DNA from: Fidelibacterota bacterium
Lineage (GTDB): Bacteria; Fidelibacterota; Marinisomatia; Marinisomatales; JABMOV01
DNA: 60,402 nucleotides
NCBI GenBank assembly: GCA_013203145.1
Contig: JABMOV010000166.1
Coordinates: forward strand, 1-60,402
Direction of reading: 5' to 3'
Under the pieces are notes generated by a model. The model worked only from the letters and a program-made list of their open reading frames with translations, ran no database searches and was not told the DNA's origin. A program made the position numbers and the translations under genes. Below are positions 3,260 to 9,529 of this stretch, piece after piece (positions within the stretch are counted from its first letter, which is position 1; every line of letters begins with the position of its first letter).

Positions 3260-3826
3260 TTAACTCTGTAATTCTTTATATCTAAAACAATCCACGGTGT
3301 GATCATTTACAATGCCTGCACCTTGCATGAATGCATAGACAATAGTTGTACCAACAAATTTGAATCCCCGTTTTTTTAAATCAGTACTGATTTCATCACT
3401 TAAAGGAGTTGATGCTGGGATTTCTTTGATTGACTTCAATGTATTCTGGATTGGTTTTCCATTTGTAAACTGCCAGATATATGTATCAAACGATCCAAAT
3501 TCTTTTTGGACTTCTAAAAATGCCTGTGCATTTGTAATTGTGGCATTGATCTTTAGTTTATTTCGGATAATTGCTGGATTTTGTCGCAATTCTTCAGCTT
3601 TTGATTCATCGTACGTTGCAATGATATTTGGTTCAAAATTGTCGAACGCTGCCCTGAAACCTTCTCGTTTATTAAGCACAATTTGCCAACTTAATCCGGC
3701 CTGAAATGCATCAAGTGTAATAAACTCAAACCACAAACGATCGTCATGGCAGGGCGTGCCCCATTCATCATCATGGTATTTTTGCATGAGTTCGTTATTT
3801 CCGAGCCAATCACATCTTTTTTTCAT
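3260..3826 (-). CDS. tag: DNA-3-methyladenine glycosylase I
   Basis: RCDW, YHDDEWG, FQAGLSW, IIRNKLKI, GFKFVGTT, NDHTVDC; start moved to ATG 3826 (ATGA overlap with the upstream stop). Confidence 0.95.
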   Translation of the reverse strand: MKKRCDWLGNNELMQKYHDDEWGTPCHDDRLWFEFITLDAFQAGLSWQIVLNKREGFRAAFDNFEPNIIATYDESKAEELRQNPAIIRNKLKINATITNAQAFLEVQKEFGSFDTYIWQFTNGKPIQNTLKSIKEIPASTPLSDEISTDLKKRGFKFVGTTIVYAFMQGAGIVNDHTVDCFRYKELQS

Positions 3827-4380
3827 AAAGAATTTTCCTCCCAATAATCTTCCAGTTCAACACCAAGTCCACTTGCCAATCGGTTAACATAGTTAAAATA
3901 ATCGATAACCATATTAATTTGTAGAATAGCCTTATCTGAAAACCCTTGATTTCTCAAATCATCAATATGTGTTTTTTCAACTTTCCATGGTGTTGCTGTT
4001 AAAATTTTGGCATAATTCAACATGGATGCATCAGGCTCAGATATACCGAGCGGCAATTCGCCTTTTTCTAGGGTAATCGTATTTTGTTCATCATAACCGG
4101 TTTGACGAAGACCCTCTCCGTGATGCCTAATTCAGTAATGACATTGATTTTGAACCGATACTGCAACAGCAATCATTTCACGCTGCGTACGTGATAATTC
4201 AGACGAACCAAACATGAGTCGTTTATACAAACGAAGATGATCTTCCATCGTCTGTTCATCCAGACTATGGATTTTAATAATATGATCTAATAGACCATTG
4301 GATCTGTTTTTATAGCGATCAATTAATTGCGCTAAACGACCTTTTGCAACCGCCTCATCAATCCATTTTATCCACGCCAT
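3823..4380 (-). CDS. AhpD/CMD-like peroxidase-related protein, predicted selenoprotein (185 aa, Sec83 in C-H-Y-U)
   Basis: ORFs 4132..4380 and 3823..4056 are in the same frame, separated only by TGA 4132-4134; read-through gives REMIAVAVSVQNQCHY-U-IRHHGEGLRQ...FNYVNRLASGLGV. Confidence 0.88.
4089..4131 (-). promoter_or_regulatory. Bacterial SECIS-like hairpin
   Basis: After the UGA: ACGGAG-AGGGU-CUUCGU stem-loop (4121-4105), G-rich loop starting 16 nt after the UGA; CAUC/GAUG may form a lower stem. Confidence 0.65.
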
Positions 4381-4398
4381 ATTAGTGTTTGATAAATT

Positions 4399-5202
4399 CT
4401 ACCAGTATCGTTCGACGTGAATATTTCCAGGGCTTTTCTTCGTATGTTCCACAAAGCCTACCGATTCAAGTTTAGAAACCAATGTTTCAATCATTGCAGG
4501 ACCACCGCAAAGAAATATATGGGTATTGTCAGGAATAGGTTTCTCTCCCCAGCTTTCTTCCAATGCGGAACTTTCCCAGGCATCCTGCACGTAGCCATGC
4601 AAACCACCCCAGGGTGTCACTTCTTCTTTGGGTCGGCTGATAATGGGAATATAGGTCACGTTGGAACACATGTGTTTTAGGGTAATCAACTCTGAACGAT
4701 AGCCTAAATCCCAGGAATGTCGGGCTCCATGGATAATTCCAAATTTGCGATCTCCTCCACAGACTAAATGGGTTCGGAGCATGCTCATGTAAGGTGCCAA
4801 TCCGGTTCCAGTTCCGATGAGTAAAATATTCGGTTCACCTTCAATCATATCAAGAGTAAACATGCCGGTGAATTTTTTTCCAAGAAGTATTCGATTTCCT
4901 GGTTTTAATGCAAACAAACGCGGTGTGAGTTTTCCAGACCGAACCAGAGTAATATAAAACTCAATGTACTCTTTATTCTTTGAAGATGATGCTATTGAAT
5001 AGGCACGTTTAATAGGTTTATCTGAATCTGTTTTAGGTTCACGATCAGCAAAGGCTGAACGAAGAGCAGATTCTGGCAGGCCCAGAACACCGAATTGTCC
5101 GGCTTCAAAATCCGGTAATTCCCATCCATCAGGTACAACTCTTAATATGAGTAATTCAGGTGAGATTTCAATTCGCTGGCTTACAACTGCATTTAATTCC
5201 AT
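4399..5202 (-). CDS. fpr: Ferredoxin/flavodoxin-NADP+ reductase
   Basis: RAYSIAS, GKLTPRL, GTGTGLAPY, FLCGGPAM, C-terminal ERYW. Confidence 0.9.
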   Translation of the reverse strand: MELNAVVSQRIEISPELLILRVVPDGWELPDFEAGQFGVLGLPESALRSAFADREPKTDSDKPIKRAYSIASSSKNKEYIEFYITLVRSGKLTPRLFALKPGNRILLGKKFTGMFTLDMIEGEPNILLIGTGTGLAPYMSMLRTHLVCGGDRKFGIIHGARHSWDLGYRSELITLKHMCSNVTYIPIISRPKEEVTPWGGLHGYVQDAWESSALEESWGEKPIPDNTHIFLCGGPAMIETLVSKLESVGFVEHTKKSPGNIHVERYW

Positions 5203-5204
5203 TA

Positions 5205-6530
5205 TTATTTCCCCAATATTCCTAACTGTTTATATTTTTCTAGATACTTCTTATAAAGTGTTTTGTGTCGATCATTCATGTCGGTGGTCGTTCCAAGAAT
5301 ATATGCCTGTTCAACATGTGATGTAATTTCGAGTATATCGCCGTCCGCTATGAACAAAGATGCATCTTTGCCAATGTCCAACGATCCTATCTGATCGTCA
5401 ACTCCAAGGATTTCTGCAGCGGATAGCGTTATAGATCGCAAAGCGACATCCATGGGTAAACCAAAAGCAGCTGCCATTGCGGCGTGGTTAGGTAAATCCC
5501 TGACATGTGCCGCTTGAAATGCATTACCAGCTGTGGATATACAGAATGATACACCGGCCTCGTACAACCAGGCAGGAAGGGCATAGGCTTCGCTATAATC
5601 ACTATTTCTGCGCCATGGTGTTCGGAGGGTGCCTTCTATTATAACAGGGATTTGATGTTCTTTCAAGATTTCTGTAACACGCCAGGCATCCCAGCCACCA
5701 ACAATAACTATTTTCACGTTTTGCTTTATGGACCAATGTACAGCAGTTTCAATTTGACGTGCATCAAAGGCATGAATGAAAAATGGTTTTTCACCATTTG
5801 CATAAGGAATCATTGCCTCAAGTCGAAGATCATGTGCTACATCATGTGGACGTGATTTTGGTGGATTGTCTATTATTTTTTGGTATTGGCGTACTCGATC
5901 AATTAATTCATTCAGTTCTTTTAGAGCTTTGCGTCGGTTTTCCTCTTGCTCACTAACAGGAGTTTTGGAATTGGGATTAGTATCAATCCACATATCAGGC
6001 CAATTAACATGCAAAGCAGTTGGATGATTAAGAGTAGCATCTTCCCATGTCCATCCATCCATCATCATGAGTGAAGATTGCCCAGTTAGCCTCCCGCCTG
6101 TTGGCATAGTATTTACAAAAAGAACACCATTTGATCGTGTTATTGGTATGAGTTCCGAATCAGGATTATAGCTCACATTGGCGCGAACCTCAGGTGTCAT
6201 GTCACCGACTTCATCGTAGTCAACTGTGGCACGAACGGCAGAGACTTCCACTAAACCCAAAGTAGACACGCTGGCAATTAAACCGGGATAGATGTGTTTT
6301 CCTCCAGCATCGATTACTTCCATTTCAGGGTTAGGGACAATATTATCATCAATGCGGGTAATGATACCATTTTCAAACAGGATATCAGTGTGTTCCAATA
6401 CACCATGTGATACAGTATGCAACGTGCCATTTTGAATTAAAATGGGTTTTTCCTGCGCCGGTGCTGGAATTTGATCAGAGGCGAAAATAACTGCAAATGC
6501 AAATATTGGGAGGTAAATAAGTTGTCTCAT
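5205..6530 (-). CDS. Secreted amidohydrolase-family protein (lacks HxH)
   Basis: Signal peptide, DAGGKHIYPGLI, GSLDIGKDASL; start set at ATG 6530 (ATGA overlap). Confidence 0.8.
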   Translation of the reverse strand: MRQLIYLPIFAFAVIFASDQIPAPAQEKPILIQNGTLHTVSHGVLEHTDILFENGIITRIDDNIVPNPEMEVIDAGGKHIYPGLIASVSTLGLVEVSAVRATVDYDEVGDMTPEVRANVSYNPDSELIPITRSNGVLFVNTMPTGGRLTGQSSLMMMDGWTWEDATLNHPTALHVNWPDMWIDTNPNSKTPVSEQEENRRKALKELNELIDRVRQYQKIIDNPPKSRPHDVAHDLRLEAMIPYANGEKPFFIHAFDARQIETAVHWSIKQNVKIVIVGGWDAWRVTEILKEHQIPVIIEGTLRTPWRRNSDYSEAYALPAWLYEAGVSFCISTAGNAFQAAHVRDLPNHAAMAAAFGLPMDVALRSITLSAAEILGVDDQIGSLDIGKDASLFIADGDILEITSHVEQAYILGTTTDMNDRHKTLYKKYLEKYKQLGILGK

Positions 6531-9529
6531 TTTGCACCTTCTTCCCATAAAATATCATCGTGACCCAAACAATGCTCTTCACTATCGTCTGGAGCTGGCG
6601 GGGGCTCAAGAGGTGGGTTTCCCGTATCATCAGATTTAAGTATGTTTTGTATCAATTCCTGACGAATGGTTTTATCGCGTGCCAATAAATCAGCATCTTT
6701 TTTGAGGCTAAAGTATTGTCTTCCATCAATCCATGTTTCTTCACACTTCGATTGTGTCGATAGCGGATGTCCGCTCCAAACCACAAAGTCAGCGTCTTTG
6801 CCTTCTTCCAATGATCCAACCCATTTATCGATTTTTAGTTGTTTTGCTGGATTGATTGTGACAGTATTTAAAGCATCAATTTCTGACATGCCACCATACT
6901 TTACGCCTTTTGCTGCTTCCAGATTCATGCGGCGAGCAAGTTCGTCTGAATCACTATTGAAGGAAACCAAAACACCGGCTTCCTGCATTAGCGCACCATT
7001 GTAAGGAATAGCATCAAACACTTCAAACTTGTATGCCCACCAATCCGTGAATGCTGATCCACCTGCTCCATGTTCAGCGATGCGCTCGGCGACTTTATAT
7101 CCTTCCAAAACGTGTTGGAATGTTCTGATAGTAAATCCAAAATCTTCCGCTACACGTGTGAGCATAAGTATTTCATCTTGCCGATATGAATGACAATGTA
7201 CCAGTCGTTCGCCTTCAAGAACTTCCACCAAGGCATCTAATTCTAAATCTTTTCTTGGAGGGATCAGCGTTTTCTGCCAATTTGAATTTTTATTATAAGC
7301 GCGCCAGTTTTTTTTGTAATCATTGGCACGTGTGAATGCATCCCTGAGAATTTGCTCTACACCCATGCGGGTTTGAGGATAACGCGTATTATAATCATCG
7401 CCCCAGTTGGATTGTTTCACATTCTCACCCAAAGCAAATTTGATTCCTTTCGGTGCACTTTTTAACAATAATCCCTGGGCATTTGAACCCCATCGTAGTT
7501 TTATCACCGCATTTTGCCCACCAATCACATTTGCGGAACCGTGCAAAATATTAATTGAGGTAAGTCCACCAGCTATTTCCCTGTAAATATTTATATCATC
7601 AGGATCAAGTACATCTTGAATACGCACCTCTGATGTGACACTTTGTGCGCCCTCATTAATAGAAGCCGCAGCGGAATGACTATGAGCATCAATAAGACCG
7701 GCAGTGATGTGCTTTCCGCTACCGTCAATTACCACAGCGCTGTTTCGTGGGATTTTAATATCACGGGCAATTTTGTTGATTTTACCTTCGACGATAAGCA
7801 TATCCCAATCTTTTAGGATTCCTTTAGGACCGGAGGTCCAAATGGTAGCGTCGTTGATCAAAACAGAATAGGGTTGGTCGGGAATTTGTTCAAATCCGTA
7901 TGCGCCTTCAGGATAAACAACTGAAAAATTGCTGGCAGATTCCTCAATAGTTTTTTTCTCTTCCGCTTCGATTGCAGTATAATTCGTTGCTATCCATGAG
8001 AATTCATCGTCATTAGAATGAACCACAGTACCTACCAATTTATCTTTTGAGAGCGTTCCGGTAAATCTGGTAATACCAGAAAAATCATAGGTATCCGTTT
8101 CAAGAACCCATGAAAGTCGATTACCATCCACATTTAGGTGTTTTAAATCGATGGCGGTTGTATCAAATGTGATTGTTCCGGTAGGACTGGAAGGTTCGCC
8201 TTTGAATTCTAATTGTCCAGTTAACTCATTAATTGAGAAATCCCATTTTCCAAGGAGGAGGATTTCCGGCGCCGGTTCAACATCAATTTTATCACCACGA
8301 ATCCAGATTGATCTAACGGGATTTGATTCATCGAAATAGTTTCCATCTACAACAACAAAATTGGCATGGTATCCAGATTTTATTTTTCCGTGCGTATTTG
8401 ATAATCCAAATCGGTTAGCAGGATTGGTAGTAAGTGCCGCCAGAGCATCATCTTCACTGAGACCACGACGAACAGCAGACGCTAGATTTTTGCGAAATTG
8501 TTTACGATCTTTTAATCCGTTGGATGTAAAGGCAATACGAACTCCCGCATTGATCAATTTTTGTGCATTATCTGGCGCCATATCCCAATGTTTTAGTTGC
8601 TCGGTTGTATACTGTATAGCGCGATATGGATTGGCAATGTCAGGTTTCCCGGGGAAATTAAGTGGGAGAACAATAAATGGATTAGCTTTTGCTATTTCTG
8701 AAAGTCGTCGATATTCAAATCCCGAACCAAGAAGCCAGAGATCTAGACCAAACTCTTGTGCAACGTCTATTGCCCGGGTTGCGGCTGTCTCTTGACCAGT
8801 CTTTATATAAAAGGGCACCTTATTTATCCGCGCCATAGCGAGTGTTTCTAAAGCCACATTTTCTTTTATAGATTCATTTTTATCAGGGTTATCCGAGTAA
8901 ATAGATTGAGATTTTCCATACCATTCAGCATCATATAGGGTTTGCCGCATAACAGCAATGGTTCCTAGTAAGGATCCGGGATACTCATCTGAATCCCATC
9001 CTCTGGTTTTAAAATCCATGACCTGACTTACAGATGATGCCGTAATTGAGGCATGATTGTCTAAATTGATTATAGAGGATTGTCCACGGAAAATTCCGTC
9101 ATTAGGTACTGCATGAATTTGGGTAAATCCAAGAGAATGAAGTTCTTTAACAACTTTATCATCAAAAGAATAATAATCGGAAGCCACCCATTCGGGGTGA
9201 ACCAAATCAATCCAATGAGAACGGGAAGAGCGTTTAGTGTCTTTGGTTTCGACTTCAAACCATCCATCTATGAATCCAGCGTAGACATCAGCACCATTCA
9301 TGTTCAGGATTGTGGCATCTTTTGGAATAGAGATTTTTGAACCAACTTCCTCAATAATACCATCCCTGATGGCAATAGATGCATTTGATAATGTTTGTCC
9401 CGGTTCAGTATGAACTGTGGCGTTTTGCAATACATATACCCGCGGATTAACATGCATAATATCGATCAACGGTTCTGTCTGACAGAATAGGAATCCATAA
9501 AAGGATACTAAGAAGATTGATTTTTTCAT
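6527..9529 (-). CDS. Secreted double-domain amidohydrolase
   Basis: Two amidohydrolase repeats (NPANRFG...GKIKSGYHANF; GLIDAHSH...NPAKQL...GSLEEGKDADF). Confidence 0.85.
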   Translation of the reverse strand: MKKSIFLVSFYGFLFCQTEPLIDIMHVNPRVYVLQNATVHTEPGQTLSNASIAIRDGIIEEVGSKISIPKDATILNMNGADVYAGFIDGWFEVETKDTKRSSRSHWIDLVHPEWVASDYYSFDDKVVKELHSLGFTQIHAVPNDGIFRGQSSIINLDNHASITASSVSQVMDFKTRGWDSDEYPGSLLGTIAVMRQTLYDAEWYGKSQSIYSDNPDKNESIKENVALETLAMARINKVPFYIKTGQETAATRAIDVAQEFGLDLWLLGSGFEYRRLSEIAKANPFIVLPLNFPGKPDIANPYRAIQYTTEQLKHWDMAPDNAQKLINAGVRIAFTSNGLKDRKQFRKNLASAVRRGLSEDDALAALTTNPANRFGLSNTHGKIKSGYHANFVVVDGNYFDESNPVRSIWIRGDKIDVEPAPEILLLGKWDFSINELTGQLEFKGEPSSPTGTITFDTTAIDLKHLNVDGNRLSWVLETDTYDFSGITRFTGTLSKDKLVGTVVHSNDDEFSWIATNYTAIEAEEKKTIEESASNFSVVYPEGAYGFEQIPDQPYSVLINDATIWTSGPKGILKDWDMLIVEGKINKIARDIKIPRNSAVVIDGSGKHITAGLIDAHSHSAAASINEGAQSVTSEVRIQDVLDPDDINIYREIAGGLTSINILHGSANVIGGQNAVIKLRWGSNAQGLLLKSAPKGIKFALGENVKQSNWGDDYNTRYPQTRMGVEQILRDAFTRANDYKKNWRAYNKNSNWQKTLIPPRKDLELDALVEVLEGERLVHCHSYRQDEILMLTRVAEDFGFTIRTFQHVLEGYKVAERIAEHGAGGSAFTDWWAYKFEVFDAIPYNGALMQEAGVLVSFNSDSDELARRMNLEAAKGVKYGGMSEIDALNTVTINPAKQLKIDKWVGSLEEGKDADFVVWSGHPLSTQSKCEETWIDGRQYFSLKKDADLLARDKTIRQELIQNILKSDDTGNPPLEPPPAPDDSEEHCLGHDDILWEEGAK

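Follow-up and report, generated by a model that had tools for sequence, protein, structure and literature searches.

An AhpD-like, peroxidase-related selenoprotein gene predicted across an in-frame TGA in a Fidelibacterota contig

Does the TGA at positions 4132–4134 of contig JABMOV010000166.1 end a gene on the minus strand, or is it read through as selenocysteine (Sec, U)? The contig (60,402 nucleotides; the whole stretch is referred to as the window) belongs to the Fidelibacterota bacterium assembly GCA_013203145.1. At this place translation with code table 11 yields two open reading frame (ORF) fragments in one minus-strand frame, 4132..4380 (82 residues, starting with ATG) and 3823..4056 (77 residues, starting with TTG). 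When the TGA, which is TCA on the plus strand, is read as U, the fragments merge into a single frame of 185 residues from the ATG at 4380 to a TGA at 3825..3823. We conclude that 4380..3823 is very probably one intact gene, encoding an AhpD-like, peroxidase-related selenoprotein of the TIGR01926/COG2128 type. The reading frame, the family membership, the conservation of TGA at this codon, the Sec machinery of the genome, and the fold are what the analysis shows. The features of the gene, including a hairpin that resembles a selenocysteine insertion sequence (SECIS), are as follows.

3823..4380, minus strand: AhpD-like/peroxidase-related selenoprotein gene, 185 codons (4380..3826) plus the stop TGA (3825..3823).
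4132..4134, minus strand: predicted selenocysteine codon (U83), a UGA in frame that occupies the second position of a CxxC-type motif, assigned from the sequence and the homologue columns.
4141..4143, minus strand: codon TGT of Cys80, presumed resolving cysteine of C-H-Y-U, invariant in a 30-sequence alignment.
4120..4122, minus strand: codon of the relay histidine His87 (U83 + 4), invariant, with the spacing found in PA0269 and M. tuberculosis AhpD.
4177..4179, minus strand: codon of the relay glutamate Glu68 (Cys80 − 12), invariant, with the spacing of Glu36-Cys48 in PA0269.
4105..4121, minus strand: SECIS-like hairpin (7-bp stem, apical loop GGG) that begins 10 nt past the UGA and lies inside the codons for H87-G-E-G-L-R92.

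The peptide around the TGA reads Q-N-Q-C80-H-Y-U83-I-R-H86-H87-G-E-G-L-R, and the 102 codons past the TGA are open and match homologues. In the 30-sequence alignment, full-length homologues line up with the protein at both its C terminus and its N terminus (MAWIKWI), and we therefore take ATG 4380 to be the real start and TGA 3825..3823 the real stop. A first-pass annotation of this DNA had joined the two fragments in frame across one TGA, had placed that TGA at the second cysteine of a motif C-H-Y-U-I-R-H-H, and had expected standard annotation to split the gene; its coordinates, join, and motif (C80-H81-Y82-U83-I-R-H86-H87) are all correct, and table-11 ORF calling does give the two pieces. 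An ordinary gene caller would report either these two fragments or, with code table 4, a protein with Trp at the catalytic site, and in both cases the active-site residue and the selenium requirement would be lost. A scripted scan of the window for other TGA-joined frames in a redox-like context returned six candidates, of which only 4132–4134 is credible.

The strongest evidence on how the TGA is read comes from its distribution among homologues. The genome itself and its relatives (41 genomes) include 15 with a match; 13 of the 20 matches carry a TGA and seven do not. At the level of the order (233 genomes, threshold E ≤ 1e-15), 91 matches were found in 73 genomes, comprising 81 with an in-frame TGA, eight that are full-length without a stop, and two partial matches that do not cover residue 83. 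The TGA-bearing matches are 34–59% identical to the query, with similarity running on to the C terminus, and they span query residues 1–181/185 with one TGA inside. Of the 44 locus rows that could be read, 38 (37 distinct places) carry a TGA, always at this very codon, and the other six have TGC or TGT there. Alignment with cysteine homologues had been suggested as a check, and it places TGC or TGT of the Cys forms at the codon where the Sec forms have TGA. Two homologues from Gemmatimonadota metagenome-assembled genomes (46–47% identity) also have TGA at the same site, in the context C-F-Y-U.

These counts bear directly on the possibility that a TGC or TGT codon has been mutated, or misread in assembly, to TGA, leaving a protein truncated at 82 residues. 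Such a lesion would account for the two table-11 fragments, and it draws some support from the dispensability of the gene in close relatives and from a homologous copy in one relative (G005, loci L035/L040) that is itself broken into two frames. Against it stand the 81 of 91 order-level matches with a TGA inside, the position of the TGA in all 38 TGA-bearing rows, and the open, homologue-like 102 codons that follow it; as neither a nonsense mutation nor a sequencing error could persist at a single codon in proteins only 34–59% identical to the query, we consider a pseudogene or assembly error extremely unlikely. Other contigs covering the site agree. The first-pass annotation had named TGC or TGT at 4132–4134 in raw reads as a finding that would refute selenocysteine; neither codon occurs in two contigs that cover the site, although these are contigs and not raw reads. 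The contig of run X1 (word depth 175.6) is identical over 3700–4500, but this run is probably the source of the present DNA and hence not independent, and a 224-nt contig of run X2, from the same study, covers 4038–4261 with zero differences. Only contigs (Logan) were compared, so minor variants at the TGA may exist.

A conserved TGA could in principle specify another amino acid, with Trp, Gly, or Cys inserted through a reassigned code or near-cognate suppression. The column at the site was inspected in 29 aligned database homologues, where it holds Cys in 20, Trp in seven, Leu in one, and Ala in one, and the seven Trp residues are what a table-4 translation would give. The proteins with Trp at the Sec column are P0002, P0004, P0005, P0007, P0010, P0016, and P0021; Leu is found in P0026 and Ala in P0098. 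A quick maximum-likelihood tree was computed from 73 rows (42 from loci, two from Gemmatimonadota, and 29 from protein databases), masking the Sec/Cys site and leaving out the broken G005 copy. The Sec forms fall in several clades and most Cys forms in one group, and the window protein groups with the copy of a same-family genome (G003) and one database protein with a Shimodaira–Hasegawa-like approximate likelihood ratio test (SH-aLRT) value of 99. The Trp-bearing database proteins nest inside TGA clades, so that Trp at the Sec column is most simply a gene-caller artefact of table-4 translation. The backbone of the 73-row tree was not resolved, and we therefore claim neither a donor nor a direction of horizontal transfer.

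The code of the window also argues against reassignment. Among its 46 ORFs of at least 150 residues, 27 end with TAA, 11 with TAG, and eight with TGA; since TGA still ends eight of these long ORFs, and this gene too, it has not been reassigned. The predominance of Cys rather than Trp in the homologue column (20 of 29) and the presence of a complete Sec system in the genome point the same way, and we regard a different amino acid at residue 83 as highly improbable.

That Sec system was found in the genome assembly (2.85 Mb, 180 contigs, 96.5% complete), in agreement with the expectation of the first-pass annotation that selA, selB, selC, and selD should be present: tRNA-Sec and the three protein genes all score above their cut-offs. 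The selA match reaches 528.8 bits (cut-off 267.9), and directly adjoining it is selB with 350.6 bits (cut-off 242.25). selD, too, is a selenoprotein gene: its match, at 406.9 bits (cut-off 125), contains one in-frame TGA in the motif ...S-G-U-A-C-K... (G000:C162:13597-14523; L018 1393..2448, minus strand). tRNA-Sec scores 67.2 bits against a gathering score of 47 and lies at the ends of two contigs; ARAGORN identifies both copies as tRNA-SeC with anticodon tca. The two copies (G000:C151:3281-3372, plus strand, and G000:C156:3959-4050, minus strand) have identical scores and each lies about 25 nt or less from a contig end; they may represent a single gene that was assembled twice, at the ends of two contigs, or a genuine duplication.

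Directly 3′ of the UGA a hairpin starts after 10 nt, with a 7-bp stem, a GGG loop, and 17 nt from the UGA to the loop. It can also be read with 6 bp and a 5-nt loop, the loop then lying 16 nt downstream of the UGA, and in this reading it is the G-rich-loop hairpin that the first-pass annotation had described. The bacterial SECIS (bSECIS) consensus of Zhang and Gladyshev, in the form given in a review (PMC13188914), has a loop of 3–9 nt, an upper stem of 4–16 bp, G in at least one of the first two loop positions, a UGA-loop spacing of 16–37 nt, and a minimum free energy of −7.5 kcal/mol or below. The geometry here agrees with the consensus in all four respects (loop 3 nt, upper stem 7 bp, G first, spacing 17 nt).

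Taken together, the Sec forms lend support to an RNA-level signal. For this we used 35 distinct Sec forms, a set that omits L046 (a duplicate), L060 (which has N in its sequence), and L035 (located where L040 is), and compared them with six Cys forms. Four core stem pairs are kept in 33–35 of the 35 Sec forms. Mean hairpin energies are −6.64 kcal/mol for Sec forms and −4.75 kcal/mol for Cys forms; this difference is not significant (Mann-Whitney p 0.11), and the energy comparison was therefore replaced by a count of loop positions and a permutation of synonymous codons that keeps both peptide and codon usage. The loop of the best hairpin lies 16–18 nt after the UGA in 29 of the 35 Sec forms versus one of the six Cys forms, and the loop register is the same in a second Sec clade, which has another peptide there (H-G-D-D-F-R). 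Under codon permutation the Sec forms have a mean z of −1.15 (nine at p ≤ 0.05, 24 at p ≤ 0.2), compared with +0.09 for the Cys forms (none at p ≤ 0.2). In the two Gemmatimonadota genes, which are high in GC, this hairpin is much more stable (−14.2 and −15.1 kcal/mol). Many of the relatives' hairpins carry a GGUC loop, and the loop of the E. coli fdhF SECIS is likewise GGUC. As the sequences are related and hence not independent, these pooled results are support for an RNA element and not proof of one.

Several observations weigh against reading the UGA as Sec, and most of them concern the hairpin of the window itself, which is weak. Taken by itself it has a folding energy of −6.1 kcal/mol (z −2.05; eight of 200 shuffles are as good), and the energy of the bSECIS model is reached only as −7.7 kcal/mol, when a 40-nt fold adds a 2-bp lower stem; folds of 50–60 nt prefer another structure (−7.9 kcal/mol), and contexts of 50–71 nt fold no better than shuffles (z +0.24 to +0.46). 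An equally good hairpin arises in 29% of synonymous resamples drawn with the codon usage of the window, and permuting the gene's own synonymous codons yields p 0.30. Coding also constrains the stem columns, which is a confound for the hairpin because the stem lies in the codons for H-G-E-G-L-R. Covariation over the 35 Sec forms gave no usable signal: in the register of the window 73.1% of cells are paired versus a shuffled mean of 73.3%, a register shifted by one base is only weakly above shuffles (77.6% versus 75.9%, a value that 16 of 500 shuffles reach), and RNAalifold kept only four pairs. Rfam returned no match in the whole window at gathering thresholds, and at E ≤ 10 over 3700–4500 it gave two chance-level rows and no SECIS family.

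Other points on the same side concern sampling and genome context. The related genomes are not independent of one another in the counts of conservation, co-occurrence, or hairpins. selA accompanies the TGA form in 59 of 63 genomes (counted by hand; the four without it are 85–93% complete), but it is present in 176 of the 233 genomes of the order anyway, and its co-occurrence is therefore weak, non-discriminating evidence. Two genomes of the same genus lack a match, showing the gene to be dispensable; in one of them (G002, locus L068, G002:C7, 1494-1500) the two genes that flank it in the window, a reductase gene and a Tag-like glycosylase gene, lie 1 nt apart with no AhpD-like gene. No RNA run is listed for this stretch, and the case for Sec insertion is one of sequence evidence.

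Set against one another, chance can hardly account for where the TGA lies, but it could account for the hairpin taken alone. We consider it very likely that U83 is decoded as selenocysteine; the hairpin would act as its SECIS. By analogy with established bacterial Sec insertion, all components of which are present, SelB carrying Sec-tRNA(Sec) would bind the small hairpin with its G loop, 10 nt beyond the UGA (4134..4132), Sec would be delivered at residue 83, and translation would continue to the TGA at 3825..3823.

Two observations made during these searches are given for completeness. Among the Rfam rows, a c-di-GMP-I-UAU aptamer candidate at 4198–4280 on the minus strand, inside the coding sequence, scored 20.8 bits against a gathering threshold of 65.9 (E 0.083) and was set aside as chance, as was a snoR116 row from the scan of 3700–4500, also at chance level. 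In the survey of selA, one family of very small genomes (0.4–1.1 Mb; f13/g14) has selA in one of 38 genomes and an AhpD-like match in none of the 38, compared with selA in 175 of the 195 other genomes of the order; it looks as if the Sec trait was lost in this family with genome streamlining.

What kind of protein would result? Profile searches with the read-through protein, made with C in place of U, gave 114.2 bits for NCBIfam TIGR01926 (peroxid_rel, "peroxidase-related enzyme"; curated cut-off 81.8), the match covering protein residues 3–175 and profile positions 2–174 of 178. The AhpD core domain TIGR00778 (47.2 bits, cut-off 27.8) and the Pfam domain CMD (PF02627; 50 bits, cut-off 23) are also found, and the AhpD-like assignment of the first-pass annotation is thus borne out by a curated model. 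The cut-offs of three further models were not reached by the protein, namely canonical AhpD (TIGR00777, 20.6 bits versus 191.95), an AhpD-related CFYUT selenoprotein (NF041238, 51.1 versus 175), and a YciW-related selenoprotein (NF053654, 18.6 versus 310). The protein would work like an AhpD-type redox protein, yet lies outside the TIGR00777 subfamily.

Among solved proteins the closest by sequence are PDB 3c1l (Mlr4105, labelled a "putative antioxidant defense protein"; E 7.9e-22), 2pfx, and 6k40, which is the alkyl hydroperoxide reductase AhpD of D. radiodurans; 2pfx, 2oyo, and 2prr are peroxidase-related proteins. These relatives share with the window protein a length of about 185 residues, an all-helical architecture, and a CxxC at the same place (E-values 7.9e-22 to 4.1e-11), and the CYYC of 3c1l aligns to CHY-U with its second Cys opposite the TGA. 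They differ in having Cys for Sec and in an identity of only 23–30%, and most of them are without a measured function. An AlphaFold model computed from the 30-sequence input is all-helical with ten helices (mean predicted local distance difference test score 92.2), and C80 directly precedes a helix spanning residues 81–93. Foldseek superimposes this model on 3c1l and 6k40 with a template modelling (TM) score of 0.87; the range over 3c1l, 2pfx, 6k40, and 2oyo is 0.82–0.87, and chain 2prr_D scores 0.86.

The active-site residues are those of AhpD-type proteins. E68, C80, Y82, H86, and H87 are invariant across the 30 aligned sequences. The proton relay described for PA0269 consists of Glu36, Cys48, Tyr50, Cys51, and His55, with the counterparts Glu118, Cys130, His132, Cys133, and His137 in M. 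tuberculosis AhpD (PMC3141380), and the spacing Glu(−12)/Cys/Tyr(+2)/Cys(+3)/His(+7) is filled here by E68, C80, Y82, U83, and H87. The comparison with these proteins (2ijc, 2o4d, 7xw1) thus extends to both the relay residues (Glu, Cys, His/Tyr, Cys, His) and their spacing. In M. tuberculosis AhpD the second Cys is exposed and cross-links to AhpC (PMC6626918); the TGA occupies the position of this attacking residue. The window protein differs from M. tuberculosis AhpD in not being an equivalog (the TIGR00777 score above) and in chain topology, the motif lying in the N-terminal half here versus the C-terminal half in the M. tuberculosis protein; no ahpC-type gene was seen adjoining the gene in the window.

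From this homology, AhpD-like thiol/peroxide redox chemistry appears likely. U83 would replace the exposed attacking cysteine of the CxxC motif, and its selenolate would attack a hydroperoxide directly or else an oxidised partner (peroxiredoxin in its sulfenate or disulfide form). C80 would then resolve the adduct to a selenenylsulfide, with Glu68, Tyr82, and His87 relaying protons, and an external thiol reductant would regenerate the enzyme; the substrate and the reductant in this scheme are ones that we infer.

Sec could also be decoded here in the service of another CxxU chemistry, such as reductive dehalogenation or decarboxylation. The CMD fold hosts other reactions, and the debrominase Bmp8 (6ohj) is among the structural neighbours of the model (TM 0.80); a different activity would also be consistent with the low TIGR00777 score, the lack of an adjoining AhpC-type gene in the window, the varying neighbours in relatives, and the labels "uncharacterized" or "putative" on the closest solved structures. 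The full Glu/Cys/Tyr/Cys(Sec)/His relay is nevertheless invariant, 3c1l and 6k40 are annotated as antioxidant and alkyl hydroperoxide reductase proteins, and an AhpC/TSA or thioredoxin gene stands beside the Sec form in two of the relatives scanned (L025, L052). On balance we judge a chemistry other than that of an AhpD-like reductase or peroxidase unlikely, though less so than either a pseudogene or a different amino acid at residue 83.

Selenoproteins of this kind are already known. An "AhpD-like protein" (COG2128, CxxU) was reported as a new selenoprotein family in 2005 from 27 Sargasso Sea sequences (PMC1088965), the Global Ocean Sampling survey lists 299 selenoprotein sequences versus 902 Cys homologues under "AhpD-like 1" (PMC2398784), a 2026 review has the entry "AhpD-like protein, TIGR01926, CxxU" (PMC13188914), and BSepDB uses the AhpD-like selenoprotein family as a browsing example (PMC13326102). 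The first-pass annotation was therefore right that AhpD-like CxxU selenoproteins are described, having been catalogued since 2005 (PMC1088965, PMC13188914). The present gene shares with that family a TIGR01926 score above the cut-off, Sec at the second Cys, a small G-loop hairpin after the UGA, and widespread Cys homologues. Nothing in kind sets it apart; it differs in coming from an uncultured lineage and in having its hairpin at the weak end of the published model. The gene is a new member of a described family and a useful correction to annotation, and nothing new is shown here on Sec decoding or AhpD chemistry. It does add one more uncultured lineage with near-universal Sec machinery, in which Sec forms of the AhpD-like protein occur commonly, being present in 63 of 233 genomes and falling into at least two paralogous clades.

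The genes around the selenoprotein gene in the window are all on the same strand.

5205..6548, minus strand: amidohydrolase-family gene, upstream of the reductase gene.
4399..5202, minus strand: ferredoxin-NADP reductase-like gene, 267 residues (Pfam NAD_binding_1 57.1 bits, FAD_binding_6 22.3 bits).
3260..3826, minus strand: DNA-3-methyladenine glycosylase I (Tag-like) gene (Pfam Adenine_glyco 269.2 bits).

The reductase stop lies 18 nt ahead of the selenoprotein start, and the ATG of Tag (3826..3824) overlaps the selenoprotein stop TGA (3825..3823) as ATGA. The reductase has 4269 homologues at E ≤ 1e-40, those with names being ferredoxin--NADP reductases, and five of the eight rows with a named organism are Candidatus Marinimicrobia; it looks like a general ferredoxin-NADP reductase. 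A tblastn comparison of 44 loci found the reductase, Tag, and amidohydrolase genes of the window beside a homologue only at the G003 copy, in a genome of the same family. In a seawater run (X4), a contig of 7969 nt joins position 4399 to 3826 with nine other letters between. Together with the same-genus locus described above, this means that close relatives differ cleanly in having or lacking the selenoprotein gene.

A Pfam scan of 54 of the 61 flanking ORFs listed gave SIR2, PTPS, pyridoxamine-oxidase-like, and cupin genes, one AhpC/TSA gene, and one thioredoxin gene as neighbours of other Sec forms. No conserved operon or partner gene was found in the 44 loci compared by tblastn or in these 54 flanking ORFs. 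The arrangement in the window could be taken to mean that the selenoprotein gene is a self-contained single-gene cassette with an internal SECIS, gained or lost within a reductase/Tag operon that is tightly spaced without it, and in the boldest form of this idea the reductase would be its dedicated NADPH partner, the two genes forming an NADPH-dependent seleno-peroxidase module. We think this improbable: the reductase is of a widespread, housekeeping type that keeps its place without the selenoprotein, and the two are paired only in this genome and in one genome of the same family.

Two further observations concern copies elsewhere in the order. A second paralogous Sec clade (L028, L036–L039) has the motif C-[HFY]-Y-U-x-E-[AS]-H and often shares genomes with the first (e.g. 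G011, G012, G025, and G037); the peptide after its Sec differs, and its hairpin is in the same register. The copy in G005 (G005:C20, L035/L040) is split in two frames that correspond to residues 26–91, with the TGA, and residues 113–181, and it has the look of a Sec-form gene that has decayed or suffered a frameshift.

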